Source: Deltaproteobacteria bacterium
GTDB taxonomy: Bacteria; Myxococcota; Kuafuiibacteriia; Kuafuiibacteriales; Kuafuiibacteriaceae
Assembly (NCBI GenBank): GCA_011526105.1
Contig: WYAZ01000107.1
Coordinates: 12,865-76,864 of the forward strand
Direction of reading: 5' to 3'
Length of the DNA: 64,000 nucleotides
How positions within the stretch are numbered: the first letter of the stretch is position 1; each line of letters begins with the position of its first letter. Below are positions 3,489 to 41,081 of the stretch, in pieces. The position numbers and the translations under genes are program-made. Below the pieces are notes generated by a model. That model saw only the letters and a program-made list of their open reading frames with translations. It made no database searches and was not told the DNA's origin.

Positions 3489-3959
3489 ATGGTCGAGCGC
3501 GGTGAAGACGGCAACGTCGTGGACGCGGTCCCTCGGATACTCGCCAGGCTTCAGGAAGGCCAGGCGGAGACCAATCGAAGGATCGAAGAGACCAACCAAC
3601 GACTCGATGAGACCAACCGCCAGCTCGGCGAGACGAACGAGAGCCTGAGGTTTCTCGTTCGCCTCAGCCAGGGGACTCTGCTCCGGCTCGAACGCATGGA
3701 CGAGCGTTTTGAGCGCATGGACGAGCGTTTTGAGCGCATGGACGAGCGCTTTGAGCGCATGGACGAACGCTTTGAGCGCATGGACGAACGCTTTGAGCGC
3801 ATGGACGAACGTTTCGAGTCCGTGGAGAACCGAATCGAAAACGTGGAGAAGGACGTGCGCGCCATTCGGCAGGAGATTCCCAACCGAATGAACGAACGTC
3901 TCGAGCGCGTGGAGGCACGGCTCGACGCGGTCGAAGGTCGCCTGCCCGAGGCGAGCTGA
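3489..3959 (+). CDS. all-coiled-coil protein with (ERMDERF)x6 tandem heptads
   Basis: High GC3 ORF with heptad-periodic sequence throughout (ETNQRLDETNRQLGETNESL ... RLERVEARLDAVEGRL). No signal peptide. Alternative TTG start at 3453. Confidence 0.7.
   Translation: MVERGEDGNVVDAVPRILARLQEGQAETNRRIEETNQRLDETNRQLGETNESLRFLVRLSQGTLLRLERMDERFERMDERFERMDERFERMDERFERMDERFERMDERFESVENRIENVEKDVRAIRQEIPNRMNERLERVEARLDAVEGRLPEAS
3690..3815 (+). repeat. 6 x 21-bp in-frame tandem repeat
   Basis: GA(A/G)CGCATGGACGA(G/A)CG(T/C)TT(T/C) repeated head to tail six times. Units differ only at synonymous positions. Confidence 0.95.
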
Positions 3960-35377: not shown

Positions 35378-36667
35378 ATGGTCGCTGCAATCGTTCACAA
35401 CCCTCTCATTCACGCTCGCCCCGCAAACAACAGTGTTGGCACTCAGGTCAACGACATCCTCGGCAAGTACGGCCTGCCCGGCGGCTTGCTCGGCGCACAG
35501 ATCGACGCGCTCATGGGCAATCAGCTCGGCGCGCTCAACAACCTCAAGGACGCTTTCCAAGAGGCGGCCCTCGGTCGCGGCACCACTGGTCTCGAGCGCA
35601 TGCTCGGTCGACCGCTCCCTCCCTCTGGTTTTGTGCCGAGCCCTGCGCAGCAGTTGGCCAATCACCTCGCGCCGAACGGCTACGCGACGGTGCGGCACCA
35701 GATGGATCTCGCCCCCGGCCACAGCGACTCGCCGCTCGCTCGCTTGTTCGACCCGGCTCGACGCAACGCCGCGCAGTTCGAGGCCGCGCTCAACAAGAGC
35801 CCGTTCCTGAAGGCCGCCTTCGAGCGGGCCATCGGCGGCAAGGTGATCGCGGATGATCGGACCGACGGAAAGCTCACCATCGAGCGCAAGATTCCTCGGC
35901 CCCGCATGCCGGCCCTCCCTGGTCTGCAGCTCGGTCAGACCGCCGCTGGTTTGCTCGGTGCCATGGACCACGCGATTCAATCGCAGCTCGGCGGTATCGC
36001 CGGCGCGGGTCAGGCCGCTGGTTCCTTTGGACTCGGCGCGCTGCAGTCGCTGCTCGGCGGTCTCGGCGGCGGGCTGAACAGCCTCCCCGGTGTGGGTGGC
36101 GGTTCATGGAACCCGAACGCTCGGCCTGGGCTCATCAACAACAACGGACGCGCGGAGGAGAACAAGCATCAGGCCGAGATCGACTCGCTGATGAAGGATC
36201 CATCCCTCTCGGTCGAGGATAAGATCACGCTGATGCTCATGCTCATCATGAAGAAGATGGACAAGGACATCGAAGCGCAAGGTCAGCACATCAACCAGGT
36301 TCAGCAGCAGCAGAACAAGCAGGGCGCGAACGGCCAGGCGGCCGGCGCCTCGAACGGCGGCGGGGGAATCCTCGGCTCCATCGGTGGCTTGCTCGGTGGT
36401 GCCGCGGGCACCGCGCTCGGCGGCCCGATCGGCGGGATGCTCGGCGGTCAGCTCGGTGGCGCGCTCGGCGGTGCGGCCAATAACGCGGCTGGTGGAGCGG
36501 CGGGCGGCGCCCAGGGCGGCGAGAGCAGCTCGCCCTCCATCGACATCGAGACCACGAAGCTGAAGCGCATGATGGATAAGCGCTCGCAGATGTTCGACAT
36601 GCTCCGGCAGATCATCGACAAGTACAACGAGACCGCCAAGGGCATGATTCAGAGCATCGGCCGATAA
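35378..36667 (+). CDS. Cys-free, glycine-zipper-rich harpin-like protein (hypothetical, probably secreted)
   Basis: 429 aa with an AAGGAG RBS. No Cys and no Sec signal. Two (GGxx)n tracts: LLGGLGGGLNSLPGVGGG and GGLLGGAAGTALGGPIGGMLGGQLGGALGG. Two amphipathic helices: SVEDKITLMLMLIMKKMDKDIEAQ and TKLKRMMDKRSQMFDMLRQIIDKYNETAKGMIQSIGR. Confidence 0.75.
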   Translation: MVAAIVHNPLIHARPANNSVGTQVNDILGKYGLPGGLLGAQIDALMGNQLGALNNLKDAFQEAALGRGTTGLERMLGRPLPPSGFVPSPAQQLANHLAPNGYATVRHQMDLAPGHSDSPLARLFDPARRNAAQFEAALNKSPFLKAAFERAIGGKVIADDRTDGKLTIERKIPRPRMPALPGLQLGQTAAGLLGAMDHAIQSQLGGIAGAGQAAGSFGLGALQSLLGGLGGGLNSLPGVGGGSWNPNARPGLINNNGRAEENKHQAEIDSLMKDPSLSVEDKITLMLMLIMKKMDKDIEAQGQHINQVQQQQNKQGANGQAAGASNGGGGILGSIGGLLGGAAGTALGGPIGGMLGGQLGGALGGAANNAAGGAAGGAQGGESSSPSIDIETTKLKRMMDKRSQMFDMLRQIIDKYNETAKGMIQSIGR

Positions 36668-36701
36668 GTTCGGAGGCTCGAGAAGTTTCGGAAGGGGAGG
36701 G

Positions 36702-36742
36702 GGCCCCGGTCATCGAGAGGTGACCGGGGCCTTCGCTTTCTT
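36702..36742 (+). terminator. rho-independent-type terminator
   Basis: Perfect 11-bp stem GGCCCCGGTCA / TGACCGGGGCC with an 8-nt loop, followed by TTCGCTTTCTT. It starts 35 nt after the stop codon. Confidence 0.6.
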
Positions 36743-36770
36743 GGGGCATGTATGGAGGAGCGGGAGTTGA

Positions 36771-36912
36771 ATCGGAGGCGGAGAGACGTCGCAGGCCCCG
36801 GTGGCACCGCTCTCGGGGAACGGCCTTTTGCCTCCGCCTTTCGCCCTCCTGGCTCGGCGGGTCCCCTCTCGCGGTGCCGCCGGGGCCCGCGACGTCGCGT
36901 GCGGCTCTGCGT
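36771..36912 (+). repeat. long-hairpin repeat, copy A
   Basis: Outer stem GACGTCGCAGGCCCCGGTGGCACCGC / GCGGTGCCGCCGGGGCCCGCGACGTC (36785-36896). Inner helix GGGGAACGGCC / GGCGGGTCCCC. Pyrimidine-rich apical loop. Near-identical to copy B. Confidence 0.9.
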
Positions 36913-36996
36913 GTCACTGACCGACCGACGTTTGGGGTGACTCGATTGAGTTCGGCGGTCTCCACGCGGAAGCGTGAGACCAGAACGCTTTCCTGT

Positions 36997-37530
36997 TCAG
37001 TTCGGAAACAGACGCAGGATGCGGTCGCGGTTGTCTGAGAGCACCTCTTGGAACACTTCAGGCACGTTCGCACGTTCGAAAGCTCGAGCGACGGTTTCTC
37101 GCGGCAGCCGTTCGTGGGTGATCAGGTGGCGGATATCTGCGAGATCACCATCATCCGCGCGGCATGCCTTGCTCAGGATCATGTCCAGCGGGCCCAGCAC
37201 TTCGAGCTGAAGGCGATCGAGCACGAGAGCGAGACGTCGGCACGAGGAACGCCACTCAGGGGTGAGGATCTGTTGTTCGGGGCCCCAGATGTGGCTGAGG
37301 TACAGACCCTCGGGTGCGAGCTCTGCGTTGGTACGTTCTAGGGCGGCGCCCAGGTTCGCCTCCTCGATCAAGGCTTCGATCTCTCGATCGTCTGCCAGTA
37401 GGTCTACATCTTCGGTGGCCCGTGAGAGGCCGTAGCCGAGGATCATCGCGGCTCCCCCCATGAGTCGGATGCGCGCGGGCCCCTCGAGGTGACGATCGAG
37501 CGTCCGGATGATCTTCTCGGCCGCGCTCAT
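36997..37530 (-). CDS. small Pol-beta-fold nucleotidyltransferase (AbiEii / DUF6036-like)
   Basis: 177 aa from an internal ATG of a longer ORF. NTase signature LMGGAAMILGYGLSRATEDVDLL (GG-x14-DVD). Downstream LDMILSKACRADDGDLADI. ATGA overlap with the upstream gene. Confidence 0.6.
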   Translation of the reverse strand: MSAAEKIIRTLDRHLEGPARIRLMGGAAMILGYGLSRATEDVDLLADDREIEALIEEANLGAALERTNAELAPEGLYLSHIWGPEQQILTPEWRSSCRRLALVLDRLQLEVLGPLDMILSKACRADDGDLADIRHLITHERLPRETVARAFERANVPEVFQEVLSDNRDRILRLFPN

Positions 37531-38027
37531 CCGACGCGCGCTTTCACTCGCAGTAGCCTCTTTGGATCGTAACGCACCGTCGGTCGTCGGGTGTCGCGCA
37601 CGGGGTGCGCGTCGACCACCATCTGAATCGCCTGAACGGCCTCGTTCTGCTCCTGTTCGGGAATGAGGCCAAGGACCCACGCGAGCACCGAGTCTGCCTT
37701 CTCTCTGCGCGCGCCCAGCCAAAGCCGGGCGGGATCGAGACGACCCGATTGAAGCATTCGAACGATGAGTTTCACGACCCGAACCTCGGCCGGCGCCTGG
37801 GGCTGGAGGAGACCGACGACGATATCCTCGAGCGAGAGCGCAGGGTCCAACTCGCCGAGGTCGGAGCGATCCGAGTAGGCCCCGCGAAAGCCGCGCAGAT
37901 TCGCTTGGTCGATGAGGTACTCCTGTGGGCCCATGCTTCCGGCTCGTCGTGCAAGCGCGTCTCGGAAGAAGGAGCGGTGGCACGGCACGCCAAGTTTCTC
38001 TGCGTAGGTGGGCTCCACGAGGCTCAT
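37527..38027 (-). CDS. hypothetical protein, putative partner/antitoxin of the nucleotidyltransferase
   Basis: 166 aa from MSLVEPTYAEKLG. High GC3. Translationally coupled to the NTase gene. No family motif recognised. Confidence 0.5.
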   Translation of the reverse strand: MSLVEPTYAEKLGVPCHRSFFRDALARRAGSMGPQEYLIDQANLRGFRGAYSDRSDLGELDPALSLEDIVVGLLQPQAPAEVRVVKLIVRMLQSGRLDPARLWLGARREKADSVLAWVLGLIPEQEQNEAVQAIQMVVDAHPVRDTRRPTVRYDPKRLLRVKARVG

Positions 38028-38127
38028 CCTAGCATGGCGAAGCTGTTCCTCGCGACGACGCAGGAACGTCGATCGAGGCCATCGAGCGTCGCGCTCGCGG
38101 CGCCCCTCGGCGCGGAGGGGAGGTTGC

Positions 38128-38271
38128 ATCGGAGGGCGGAGAGACGTCGCTGGGCCCCGGTGGCACCGCTCTCGGGGAACGTCCTTTTGCCTCCGCCTTT
38201 CGCCCTCCTGGCTCGGCGGGTCCCCTCTCGCGGTGCCACCGGGGCCCGCGACGTCGCGTGCGGCTCTGCGT
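38128..38271 (+). repeat. long-hairpin repeat, copy B
   Basis: Same element as copy A with a few substitutions and a 1-nt bulge in the outer stem (hairpin 38143-38255). Confidence 0.9.
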
Positions 38272-38288
38272 CTCGGTTGACGTGTCGA

Positions 38289-38795
38289 GTGGGTGGCCGT
38301 AGCACTTCGCTCGTGGCGCTTTCGATCGACGTGAAGCTCGATAAGGATGCGGATGTTGCGTGGCCGGATCGTTGTGTCGTTTGCGATCGACCTGCGCCCA
38401 ATCATGCCGCGCGCTTCTCGGACCGAAGCACCAGTCTGTGGACGACGATCACCATGCAGTTCGCGAAGAAGGTCCACGTCTCAGCGCCGGCCTGTCCGGG
38501 CTGTGCGGTGCGACTCGAACGCCGGCATCGCCTCGAGAAGGTCGGGATGGTTTCTACCGTGCTCGGCGGAACGTGGCTCGGTCTTGCGTTCGTGGCGCCC
38601 CTGTTTCCCGCATGGGGCAAGGTCTGGGTCGCGGGCGCGTGCGGGCTGGCGGCCTATGTGCCACTGGTCGGGCTCCAGGTCTTCTGGGCGCCCCCGTTCT
38701 CCATCACCGCTTGGGGCCGCGAGATCGCCTACGAGTTTACGAATGAAGGGTACGCGAGGGAGTTTGCCGAGTTGAACCGTTCGGAAGCGAGCTGA
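38289..38795 (+). CDS. small membrane protein with CxxC...CxxC zinc-ribbon-like N-terminus
   Basis: In-frame GTG (38289) or TTG (38277) just after repeat B. CVVCDR...CPGC, then two hydrophobic segments (MVSTVLGGTWLGLAFVAPLF, VWVAGACGLAAYVPLVGLQVFW). The start is uncertain. Confidence 0.45.
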   Translation: MGGRSTSLVALSIDVKLDKDADVAWPDRCVVCDRPAPNHAARFSDRSTSLWTTITMQFAKKVHVSAPACPGCAVRLERRHRLEKVGMVSTVLGGTWLGLAFVAPLFPAWGKVWVAGACGLAAYVPLVGLQVFWAPPFSITAWGREIAYEFTNEGYAREFAELNRSEAS

Positions 38796-38825
38796 GCCGA
38801 GCGCCAAGCGTTATACTTCGGCCCG

Positions 38826-40181
38826 ATGTCCGGCTCGCGTCCCATCACCGGCGGTTCGAACGCGAGCTCGATCGGCACCCACGTCACGGGCGCGAACACG
38901 CCCGCTCCGCTCGAATCGGCGACCGGATCGAACGCCTCGGGGCCAACCGGCTCACTGTTTCCGGCGAGCGCGGGCGACGAGGTCTCCAAGCGAGACCTCA
39001 CGATCTTCACCGCGATGCTCTCCGGACAGATCGCGGTGAAGGACGGGATGAGGTCCATCGCGCTTTCTGGCGGTTGGCCGATTCGCACCGCGAACGGCTA
39101 CTTGTTCGCGCGTCCGGGTGAAGGCGAAGAAGAGCTCAGCCTCATCGGTGATCACAACGGATGGCAGGCCGCACCCATGGAGAAGAAGGGCGACTTGTTC
39201 TGGACGCACGCCCCGGTGCTGAGCCCAGAGGGCACGCTTCGATACAAGTTCAGCGCCGGACCCGGGCGAGACTTCGCCGACCCGTGGGCGCGTCGATATC
39301 TCTACGAGGGCGACCTTGAGCAGGGTGATCGCGAGATCTCCTTCATTCGCACCCACCAGCCGCACCTCGAGCGATGGCCGCTGGTCTCCGACGGAAGCTT
39401 CGATCCGCGGACGATCCAAGTCTGGGTGCCCAAGGGTCCCATCGAACGCATCCTCTATGTGCACGACGGCCAGAACCAGTTCAGACCGCGGGCGACGCCG
39501 TTTGGTGCTTGGTCGACCGACAAGGCGGTGGGCCCGAGAACGATGGTGGTGGGAATCGAGGCCAACCTTGACCCGCTCAAACGCGCCCTCGAATACACGG
39601 ATACGAAGAACTGGCTGTACACCAGGAGCACCGGTTGGCAGGAGGCCGGCGGCGACGGGGAGAAGTACGCTGCGTTTTGTCACAACACGGTCGTCGACTT
39701 CATCGAGTCCCGCTACGCCAACCCGAAGAAGCGCGGCATCATGGGCTCCTCACTCGGCGGCGTCGCCGCCTACCTTCAGTCGCGGCAAGACCCAAGCGCC
39801 TACGACTTCGTCGCTTGCCTCTCCTCCACCTTCGGATTCGGAGGTCTCGAAGTCGAGGGCCTCAAAGAGGGGACGAAGGACACTTCCGAGATTCGAAAAA
39901 GCACCTCCATCCCGCTCGTCGATCGGATGACCGAGCACCAGTTCGGTGAGCAGCGCCCGGTCTACTACTTCTACTCGGGCGGTCACCCGGGCGGCGCCGA
40001 CAACTACGACGCAACGCTGAAAGCCGCGCAGACCATCGCGGCCAAGCCTGGCTACGGCTGGGACACCAACGTCTTCCACGCCCACGCGCCGGGCGTGCCG
40101 CACGGCGAGGTCGGCTGGCGGGCCCTGCTGGCGCGAGAGCAGACGCAGAAGAACCCGATCCGGATCTTCGAGGCGCTCTAG
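38826..40181 (+). CDS. esterase-family alpha/beta hydrolase with N-terminal E-set/CBM48-like domain
   Basis: LSLIGDHNGWQAAPMEKKGDLFW (E-set-like). ILYVHDGQN and GIMGSSLGGVAA (GxSxG) are typical of the putative esterase / enterochelin-esterase-like family. The first ~70 codons may not be coding. Confidence 0.7.
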   Translation: MSGSRPITGGSNASSIGTHVTGANTPAPLESATGSNASGPTGSLFPASAGDEVSKRDLTIFTAMLSGQIAVKDGMRSIALSGGWPIRTANGYLFARPGEGEEELSLIGDHNGWQAAPMEKKGDLFWTHAPVLSPEGTLRYKFSAGPGRDFADPWARRYLYEGDLEQGDREISFIRTHQPHLERWPLVSDGSFDPRTIQVWVPKGPIERILYVHDGQNQFRPRATPFGAWSTDKAVGPRTMVVGIEANLDPLKRALEYTDTKNWLYTRSTGWQEAGGDGEKYAAFCHNTVVDFIESRYANPKKRGIMGSSLGGVAAYLQSRQDPSAYDFVACLSSTFGFGGLEVEGLKEGTKDTSEIRKSTSIPLVDRMTEHQFGEQRPVYYFYSGGHPGGADNYDATLKAAQTIAAKPGYGWDTNVFHAHAPGVPHGEVGWRALLAREQTQKNPIRIFEAL

Positions 40182-40198
40182 GCTCCGCATTCTGCGTC

Positions 40199-40340
40199 GC
40201 GAGCCCGCAGTGCAAAGCGACGGGACCCGGGACGACCGCACGCCTCGAGGGGACTCGCCGAGCCAGGATGGCGAGAGGCGGAGGCCGGAGGCCGTTCCCC
40301 GAGAGGGGTGCGGTCGTCCCGGGTTCCGTCGCGTTCGTCC
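40199..40340 (-). repeat. long-hairpin repeat, copy C (inverted orientation, diverged)
   Basis: Core GAGGGGACtCGCCGAGCCAGGAtGGCGAgAGGCGGAGGC...GGCCGTTCCCCGAGAG matches the reverse complement of A/B. The outer stem has a different sequence but is still self-complementary: GCGACGGGACCCGGGACGACCGCAC / GTGCGGTCGTCCCGGGTTCCGTCGC (40217-40332). Confidence 0.8.
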
Positions 40341-40358
40341 GTTCTCCGGTCCTCCTCC

Positions 40359-40378
40359 CTCTCTCTCTCTCTCTCTCT
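40359..40378. repeat. (CT)10 dinucleotide microsatellite within a ~45-nt polypyrimidine tract
   Basis: ctctctctctctctctctct read directly. It lies 68 nt upstream of the lipoprotein ATG at 40446. Confidence 0.95.
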
Positions 40379-40445
40379 CCACTCGCTCTCCCCAGGCCGG
40401 CCCCGCAAAAACCCGGCTTCCCAGGCCTTGCGTGGCCTGCTAGGA

Positions 40446-41081
40446 ATGCGCCCCATGCGACGAATTCTCCCCCTCCTCCTCACGCTCCCTCTCATGTTCG
40501 CAGTTGCCTGTGGCGACAGTGAAGGCGACGCCGATACCGGCGTCACCACCGACCTCGGTACGGCCTCCGACAGCGGCGTCCGTCCCGACGCAAACGTTCA
40601 GGCCGACACCGGCGTTCGTAATGACGCGGGCACGCCCGCCGACTCGGGCACGCCGTCGGACTCTGGCACGCCGACCGACTCTGGCACGCCCACTGACTCG
40701 GGCACACCCGCCGACTCGGGCACGCCGACCGACGCGGGCAACATCCCGGACGCGGGCACCAGCACCTCCGGTGCGTGCACGAACACCGCCGACGAGACCG
40801 CGATCGACACCACCGGCGAAGCGGCGCTCACCACGGCGACGCGAGACTGCATCGTGGGCTGCATCCTCGATCCGAACCGCGTGGATTGCACCGCTCAATG
40901 CATGACCGACAGCACGGGCATCTCGCTGCCTTGCACCACGTGCTTCGCAGATCGAGCGAACTGTGCGGTGGTGAACTGCTCGGCAGCTGGATGTCTCACC
41001 GATCCGAGCAGTCAGGGCTGCGCAGACTGTCAGATCCAGAACAACTGCGTGAGCAACTTCGAGACCTGCTCGGGTCTCTGA
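40446..41081 (+). CDS. lipoprotein with D(S/A)GTPx hexapeptide repeats and Cys-rich C-terminal domain
   Basis: MRPMRRILPLLLTLPLMFAVAC (lipobox). Tandem DSGTP(S/T/A) units. C-terminal domain with 12+ Cys (CIVGCILDPNRVDCTAQC...CADCQIQNNC). Confidence 0.75.
   Translation: MRPMRRILPLLLTLPLMFAVACGDSEGDADTGVTTDLGTASDSGVRPDANVQADTGVRNDAGTPADSGTPSDSGTPTDSGTPTDSGTPADSGTPTDAGNIPDAGTSTSGACTNTADETAIDTTGEAALTTATRDCIVGCILDPNRVDCTAQCMTDSTGISLPCTTCFADRANCAVVNCSAAGCLTDPSSQGCADCQIQNNCVSNFETCSGL
40623..40766 (+). repeat. 8 x 18-bp in-frame tandem repeat (6 tight + 2 degenerate)
   Basis: GAC(T/G)C(G/T)GGCAC(G/A)CC(N)(N)(N)(N) units encoding DAGTPA DSGTPS DSGTPT DSGTPT DSGTPA DSGTPT DAGNIP DAGTST. Confidence 0.9.

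Follow-up and report, generated by a model that had tools for sequence, protein, structure and literature searches.

What kind of element has left three related long hairpins between genes within 3.6 kb of a myxobacterial genome: a mobile repeat, a structured RNA, or a site at which gene cassettes are exchanged? The question was raised by a first-pass annotation of a 64,000-nt stretch of contig WYAZ01000107.1 (assembly GCA_011526105.1, positions 12,865–76,864), referred to here as the window, from a Deltaproteobacteria bacterium placed in the Myxococcota. By gene content and protein neighbours, the lineage of the window is thinly sampled within this phylum. The three copies, designated A, B and C (Table 1), are interpreted here, with about even confidence, as members of a small, lineage-restricted and non-autonomous family of non-coding palindromic repeats of ~160 nt, of the kind represented by repetitive extragenic palindromes and bacterial interspersed mosaic elements (REP/BIME), enterobacterial repetitive intergenic consensus sequences or intergenic repeat units (ERIC/IRU), or Correia elements.

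Extent and conservation of the copies

Self-comparison showed that A and B were direct repeats of 161 nt with 93.8% identity (98% in the hairpin part). The similarity between them started and stopped sharply, and the flanking DNA was unrelated. C was inverted with respect to A and B and matched them over a core of 79 nt with 84% identity. The first-pass annotation had described A and B as nearly identical and co-oriented and C as inverted and diverged, which was correct, as was its placement of the copies, although the units proved slightly longer than it had stated. The hairpin arms were located at 36785–36825 and 36856–36896 in A (read on the minus strand as 5′ arm, hairpin and CT-rich 3′ tail), at ~38143–38178 and ~38221–38255 in B, which has the same orientation, and at 40214–40253 and 40296–40335 in C. 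Beyond the 79-nt core, A/B and C showed homology that was marginal when compared with shuffled sequences (p 0.02–0.07). On the 3′ side, comprising stem and CT-rich tail, C aligned with A/B in the expected register (p = 0.03); the 5′ side gave its best local alignment out of the hairpin register.

The loop core CCGAGCCAGGAnGGCGAnAGGCGGAGGC occurred exactly three times in the 64 kb, against 0 occurrences expected from shuffles, confirming its conservation in all copies. The G+C content was 73–74% in the repeat sequence and 64.8% in the window. All three copies were intergenic, as previously proposed: the six frames across them were open, and none had a coding-like codon-position composition.

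Structure of the element

The element sense was taken as the plus strand of C, corresponding to the minus strand of A and B. Read in this sense, a unit is made up of a short 5′ arm (CGCAGAGCCGCA in A/B, CGCGAGCCCGCA in C), a GC-rich clamp stem of 25–26 bp, an apical domain and, as its 3′ tail, a CT-rich stretch (TCTCCGCCTCCGAT... in A, CGTCCGTTCTCCGGTCCTCC... in C). Folding energies ranged from −90 to −103 kcal/mol for all copies on either strand, with z-scores of −5.7 to −7.8, and none of 200 shuffled sequences reached an equal value. For A, −96 kcal/mol was obtained on the plus strand (z −5.7) and −93 kcal/mol on the minus strand (z −6.5); the corresponding energies for B were −95.6 and −90.5 kcal/mol (z about −6), and C folded at −103 kcal/mol (z −7.8).

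The outer stem of ~26 bp reported earlier was present in every copy, with one G-T and one C-A mismatch in A, a single one-base bulge in the otherwise perfect 26 bp of B, and a single G-T in the 25 bp of C. Its base reads GACGTCGC...GCGACGTC in A/B and GCGACGG...CCGTCGC in C, so that the stem of C indeed differs in sequence and nevertheless pairs with one mismatch. The two types share an ACCGC/GCGGT top and a CCCGG centre. When the stems of B and C were aligned in register, 14 of the 23 aligned pairs were unchanged, eight showed two-sided compensated changes, one had changed from G-C to G-T, and none was broken. Identity between B and C was 61–65% in the arms and 87–88% in the 52-nt apical core. 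Three of the four non-Watson-Crick positions were G-U in the common element sense.

The first-pass annotation had concluded that structure was kept by covariation while sequence drifted. The conservation of pairing was borne out by these counts. The apparent covariation comes from only two independent sequences, A and B being effectively one and C the other. Templated repair of quasi-palindromes is an established mutational mechanism that corrects both arms together, and the compensated changes alone are for this reason no proof of RNA function.

The apical domain of ~52–62 nt is conserved in sequence and was predicted to form a three-way junction. In the RNAfold and RNAalifold predictions a 5-bp GGGGA/TCCCC helix closed this junction, from which two small hairpins emerged, connected by the linker GGCGGAGG and carrying loops of AGGAG (A and B) or GGA (C) on the first and AAAAG or GGA on the second; across the core the loop motifs were summarised as AGGA(G/T) and, in C, GGA. 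RNAalifold gave a single common three-way-junction fold across all three copies. The 11-bp inner helix proposed earlier was imperfect, with 8–9 of 11 pairs formed when checked by hand, and the 5-bp helix was preferred by the programs. By inspection, the 3′ tail of each copy can pair with the GGAGG-rich apical loop over 6–8 bp (CTCCGCCT in A, CTCCGCC in B, CTCCGG in C). Such pairing could give a pseudoknot or an alternative fold, in motifs that are of low complexity and come from two independent sequences.

Position relative to genes and comparison with a close relative

Copy A was located 81 nt 3′ of the stop codon of a nucleotidyltransferase gene and ~20 nt beyond the terminator of a gene encoding 429 amino acids (aa). 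Copy B lay 86 nt 5′ of the nucleotidyltransferase operon, upstream of the ATG of the partner gene (38027, minus strand), and thus between the divergent starts of this operon and of a small membrane open reading frame (ORF). The two-gene module (36997–38027) therefore has B upstream and A downstream; it is context and not part of the repeat. Copy C started 5 nt past the esterase stop codon and ended 100 nt ahead of the ATG of a lipoprotein gene. A on the minus strand and C on the plus strand present the same element sense, each just 3′ of a gene, and position and orientation are consistent with a co-transcribed palindromic repeat of the ERIC/Correia type.

A homologue of the nucleotidyltransferase with 90% identity was found on each of two contigs from ENA metagenomes (L025, L026), both of which retained the order of 429-aa gene, terminator, nucleotidyltransferase pair and esterase. 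L025 aligned with the window in three blocks at 86–88% DNA identity, and a profile search with the repeat gave zero matches on L025 or L026. At the A site, 42 unaligned nt were present in these relatives vs. 250 nt in the window, and the distance between terminator and stop codon was 52 vs. 258 nt; neither a target-site duplication nor a clean empty site could be defined there from the comparison. At the B site, ~35 nt in the relative corresponded to ~528 nt in the window, and the gap also took the 5′ half of the membrane ORF. The ends of this gap share GCATGGC/GCATCGC (by eye), and it looks like a deletion of ~485 bp in the relative. Since B falls within this larger deletion, its absence says nothing about its age. 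The membrane ORF of the sister lineage (L025 601–835, compared with 38040–38795 in the window) has lost, besides its 5′ half, ~60 nt internally, and is a decaying pseudogene.

The nucleotidyltransferase pair shared 88.4% identity with its counterpart in the relative, and the flanking genes 86–87.5%. As the pair was as diverged as its flanks, it has been vertically inherited, and the common ancestor already had it at this locus; judged by this comparison, its arrival was separate from that of A and B. In other Myxococcota, more distantly homologous pairs (55–65% identity) had spacers of ~10–160 bp, and a search of these spacers showed no long hairpin. Relatives of the esterase in GTDB reached 29–31% identity and the next best match in the protein databases 46%; on the contig of this 46% orthologue, the nearest outside the lineage, no hairpin followed the gene.

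Search for further copies

The readable part of this genome comprised ~76 kb, i.e., the 64-kb window with ~9 kb to its left and ~2.9 kb to its right, and neither of these flanks contained a copy. Searches with nhmmer at maximum sensitivity in the window and in all 52 loci then fetched returned no further copy. The 25-base core pattern gave zero exact matches in the GTDB species genomes and in the JGI metagenomes; the right-half pattern gave five matches in the JGI metagenomes, all in one unrelated coding sequence; and of three exact patterns used on IMG/VR two gave zero matches and the loosest three chance matches, where such exact-pattern scans miss any copy with one mismatch in the 20–25 specified bases. 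The organism itself was present in one JGI sample (99.1% identity), in which the A–C region was not picked up. BLAST against plasmids and phages yielded no match and no similar ends. With Rfam 15, the whole window gave no match at the gathering score, and when the limit was relaxed to E = 10 there was still none that overlapped a copy. Concatenated peptides from all six frames, used as a query for mis-called proteins, had no match, and a profile of one translated frame, searched against 1.84 billion representatives, retrieved a translated CRISPR-like repeat and nothing else.

The organism's short-read (Logan) contigs were continuous through C and broke within A and within B, the behaviour to be expected of a near-identical pair; a near-identical twin of C was absent from the Logan samples. 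The only variable site in A/B across samples was flanked by stretches of >31 nt common to both copies. It may be an assembly-graph artefact and was not used as evidence of gene conversion. Several other candidates were set aside: a look-alike of the core (CAGGATGGCGAG) on the contig of a 75%-identical nucleotidyltransferase was not significant, a by-eye likeness of the A/B flanks to the 3′ end of the membrane ORF was not significant in self-BLAST, and readings as retron msd, 6S RNA or CRISPR found no reverse transcriptase, no Rfam match and no array, respectively.

A proposed palindromic repeat of the REP, ERIC or Correia kind

As a palindromic repeat, the unit would have been copied whole, without flanking DNA, into intergenic sites by a function not encoded nearby. 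A and B would then represent a recent duplicate pair, or have been kept alike by gene conversion, and C would be an older inverted copy. The complementarity of the arms may be selected as a hairpin in RNA or in single-stranded DNA, or may be maintained by intrastrand templated repair. The elements are probably co-transcribed with their neighbours, which would place A and C in the 3′ untranslated region (UTR) of the upstream gene, where a double-stranded RNA stem of 25 bp could act as a 3′ barrier or as a target of RNase III and affect the fate of the mRNA.

This interpretation draws on the discreteness of the unit, with C sharing the core and, marginally, stem and tail in the same register; on the lack of A in the sister lineage, at a site that otherwise aligns; on the intergenic and non-coding nature of the copies; on the element sense shared by A and C just 3′ of a gene, in which three of the four non-Watson-Crick positions are G-U; on the retained palindromy; and on the independence of the repeats from the genes they flank, the module being vertically inherited and having homologues elsewhere without hairpins. 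Other palindromic elements occur at 59739–59808 and 56615–56785, and the organism therefore carries elements of such a nature. Among the candidates listed by the first-pass annotation, a repeat of the type of miniature inverted-repeat transposable elements (MITEs) or REP remains the best fit to a unit that is discrete, intergenic, copied without its flanks and, for A, absent from the sister lineage.

Several observations weigh against it. No fourth copy was found in the ~76 kb and all three copies lie within 3.6 kb, so that a dispersed repeat family is not demonstrated. By inspection, neither a target-site duplication nor a target motif shared by the three sites was apparent. A conserved centre with drifting ends is the opposite of what is seen in a MITE recognised by its transposase, and neither a transposase nor a REP-associated tyrosine transposase (RAYT) is encoded in the window. 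Copy B is not in the 3′ UTR of any gene, and its absence from the relative, within a deletion that also removed half of the membrane ORF, is uninformative. Compared trait by trait with MITEs, long inverted arms are present, but the unit runs past them asymmetrically and they are its least conserved part; no shared or duplicated bases occur at the boundaries of A, B or C; and instead of dispersed copies with a parent insertion sequence there are three copies in ~76 kb, no transposase in the window and no ends of similar sequence among plasmids or phages. A classical MITE mechanism is unsupported, because there is neither target duplication nor conservation of the ends.

Known systems offer partial parallels. 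Correia elements of Neisseria (CREE/NEMIS) are likewise non-autonomous, ~100–155 bp long, with long inverted ends and a ~25-bp hairpin, lie intergenically near gene ends, and differ in presence between related strains. They have, however, conserved 26-bp terminal repeats, a TA target duplication, a site for integration host factor and hundreds of copies, whereas the ends described here drift, the centre is conserved, no duplication is visible, G+C is 73–74% and three copies are known. When co-transcribed, the Correia hairpin is a substrate of RNase III and alters mRNA stability. ERIC/IRU of enterobacteria are imperfect palindromes of ~127 bp with a conserved central inverted repeat, located in intergenic, transcribed regions in either orientation, with no associated transposase and no target duplication; they are unrelated in sequence, belong to another phylum, and are dispersed in tens to hundreds of copies rather than three within 3.6 kb. 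REP/BIME mobilised by RAYT (IS200/IS605-like) are GC-rich extragenic palindromes, often at gene 3′ ends, sometimes clustered and lacking target duplications, and act as mRNA 3′ stabilisers. Unlike the present units, REP are simple stem-loops of 20–40 nt with a conserved 5′ tetranucleotide and hundreds of copies; the unit described here exceeds them in length by a factor of four to five, its apical domain is branched, and no RAYT accompanies it in the window.

Alternative explanations

The conserved apex on drifting, compensated stems is the classic pattern of a functional RNA, and the elements could accordingly be structured RNAs with a dedicated role, acting in cis as part of a UTR or as small RNAs, with copies duplicated because they are useful at several genes. 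The clamp would present the three-way junction, whose GGA/GGAGG loops might bind a CsrA-like regulator, an anti-Shine-Dalgarno sequence or the CT-rich tail of the element itself. The common RNAalifold fold, the placement of A and C immediately 3′ of a gene and in the same sense, the three-to-one bookkeeping of G-U positions in that sense, and the CT-rich tail of every copy, pairable with the loop by inspection, are in line with such a function. It is nonetheless unlikely in view of the two independent sequences, the lack of any Rfam match even at the most permissive E-value, and the nearly equal folding of both strands. No sigma-70-like promoter and no U-tract terminator was found flanking the copies, the complementarity of GGAGG and CCTCC is of low complexity and may be due to chance, and B is upstream of an operon rather than 3′ of a gene. 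Moreover, the relative lacks A and B at the same genes, and thus neither is essential to those genes. Quite improbable, in turn, is the explanation that only the ~80-nt core is repeated, and possibly mobile, and that it landed in unrelated long palindromes, in which case the outer stems would not reflect covariation. BLAST similarity between A/B and C does end at the 79-nt core, the homology of stems and flanks is marginal, and the 5′ side is out of register. Two unrelated host palindromes would, however, need nearly equal lengths (25 and 26 bp), the same top and centre motifs and 14 of 23 identical pairs in register; the 3′ stem and tail align in the register expected, and the window offers no further palindrome with arms of 25 bp and a short spacer as a possible target. 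The only other inverted repeat there with arms of at least 25 nt and >80% complementarity was the unrelated one at 56615–56785.

Cassette exchange, the remaining candidate of the first-pass annotation, would cast the hairpins as recombination sites, either attC-like single-strand substrates or regions of RecA homology, at which gene modules are inserted, excised or inverted. A and B are indeed near-identical direct repeats around a pair of genes of a kind that integron cassette arrays commonly carry, and three sites in <4 kb, at cassette-like spacing, superficially resemble an attC cluster without an integrase. Integron attC sites, including integrase-less clusters, are imperfect palindromes of 57–141 nt whose structure is conserved above sequence, and lie 3′ of promoterless or toxin-antitoxin cassettes, ~1 kb apart; the ~120–140 nt and imperfect dyad symmetry of the present elements are like those of long attC sites such as the Vibrio cholerae repeats. 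The comparison fails in other respects. No RYYYAAC...GTTRRRY pair (the R″/R′ core boxes) is found at the hairpin bases; a lone GTTGAAT left of A on the plus strand has no partner and is on the wrong side; the stems are near-perfect and lack the unpaired spacer or extrahelical bases of attC; C is inverted, giving a mixed orientation; and no integrase or other recombinase is encoded in the 64 kb. The module occupies the same locus, equally diverged, in the relative without A or B, and homologous pairs in other Myxococcota are not flanked by hairpins. This synteny largely refutes the recombination reading for the nucleotidyltransferase module; the flanked genes were not brought in through the elements as sites of recombination, the proposal found no support, and recombination sites are overall very improbable. 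A low probability is likewise given to a new self-contained RNA or single-stranded DNA module of Myxococcota with true covariation, whether as a decoy for a regulator or the ribosome or as an integrase-independent hairpin site shuffling gene modules.

Genomic context and other repeats

Table 1. Coordinates of the repeat copies, of the neighbouring genes and of the blocks aligned with the close relative.
Feature	Position in the window	Strand	Basis
Copy A, whole unit	36757-36915	-	Self-comparison for extent; inverted-repeat scan for arms
Copy B, whole unit	38114-38274	-	Self-comparison with A
Copy C, whole unit	40186-40354	+	Self-comparison; profile alignment extends C to about these ends
Conserved apical core of C	40233-40311	+	Matches A 36804-36882 and B 38163-38236, 84% identity
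429-aa gene, no Pfam family	35378-36667	+	Pfam scan
Canonical terminator of the 429-aa gene	36699-36744	+	Terminator scan
DUF6036/AbiEii-like nucleotidyltransferase, 177 aa	36997-37530	-	Pfam and library scans
Partner gene, 166 aa	37527-38027	-	ORF and Pfam scans
Small membrane ORF	38454-38795 (frame ends 38795; Logan gene call starts 38454)	+	Gene call
Esterase	38826-40181	+	Pfam scan
Repeat-rich lipoprotein gene	40455-41081	+	Gene table
L025 aligned blocks	429-aa gene 3′ end and terminator; whole nucleotidyltransferase pair; esterase 5′ half		DNA alignment

Pfam scans of all major ORFs of the window returned the usual content of a chromosome, including genes for purine catabolism, acyl-CoA dehydrogenases, ABC/MacB transport, peptidases and YebC. 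They gave no match to a transposase, an integrase, a reverse transcriptase or a Y1 transposase (RAYT, PF01797-type), in agreement with the first-pass annotation. That annotation had also described B and C as bracketing a membrane protein and an esterase, which holds, while its coordinates for the membrane ORF (38347–38775) do not, the true frame ending at 38795. The terminator scan detected the canonical terminator downstream of the 429-aa gene and none at A, B or C, whose tails are CT-rich and not T-runs.

The nucleotidyltransferase and partner genes overlap by 4 bp (ATGA), and the partner belongs to no family in any library scanned. The pair recurs at 55–65% identity across Myxococcota metagenomes in unrelated neighbourhoods (e.g., L027, L040 and L041), which suggests that it is a mobile module of the toxin-antitoxin or defence-like type whose partner gene is uncharacterised. 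Directly 3′ of the CT-rich tail of C, a (TC)10 microsatellite is present at 40360–40379; it may be a slippage expansion of this tail. The lipoprotein gene contains an in-frame coding tandem repeat of 18-nt units (40567–40764), and another one, of 21-nt units (MDERFER), was observed at 3690–3810, where it also breaks short-read contigs.

The intergenic element at 56615–56785 is 171 nt long, with 25-nt terminal inverted repeats (GCCTAGAGCTCATCTCAAAACCCCC) 121 nt apart and 96% complementary. It is more AT-rich than its surroundings and has a MITE-like look, and a Logan contig (L001) ends inside it. The repeat of ~70 nt at 59739–59808 belongs to a second palindromic family and forms a perfect 10-bp hairpin, CCCCAGGGCC-GCAG-GGCCCTGGGG. 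An inverted copy with 91% identity is located ~7.1 kb away, just past the right end of the window (L050 1–70), and the two copies form both ends of one 7178-bp Logan contig in 17 samples. Tandem repeats of 15–16 nt (GTGAGTGAGGCCGTG-like) precede this element at 59684–59735. In another myxobacterial genome, the metagenome-assembled Myxococcales contig JACKDN010000056.1 (L022 6464–6639), three 36-nt palindromes (CCCTGCCC...GGGCAGGG) at spacings of 60–80 nt form what appears to be a REP/BIME-like cluster.

Implications

Two outcomes that the first-pass annotation had named as unfavourable to its finding were obtained: as far as the data reach (~76 kb and the database scans) no further copies were found, and the only close relative, in which the C site was not recovered, is syntenic and free of the repeat at A and B. 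The finding is thereby weakened, not erased, since structure and compensated stems are real; the probability of the more exciting readings is lowered. For Myxococcota, catalogues of small palindromic repeats are poor: the literature search yielded no paper describing them in this phylum, and no described family matches. With three known copies and no demonstrated activity, the value of the element lies mainly in annotation, and A and B break short-read assemblies at exactly these points. If transcribed, the element would provide a ready-made RNase III or stability signal beside a toxin-antitoxin-like module, and by analogy with Correia elements its perfect 25-bp duplex would be a substrate of RNase III, which is the most concrete mechanistic prediction. 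A branched apex on a covarying 25-bp clamp could, in addition, mark recent genome change in an uncultured lineage.

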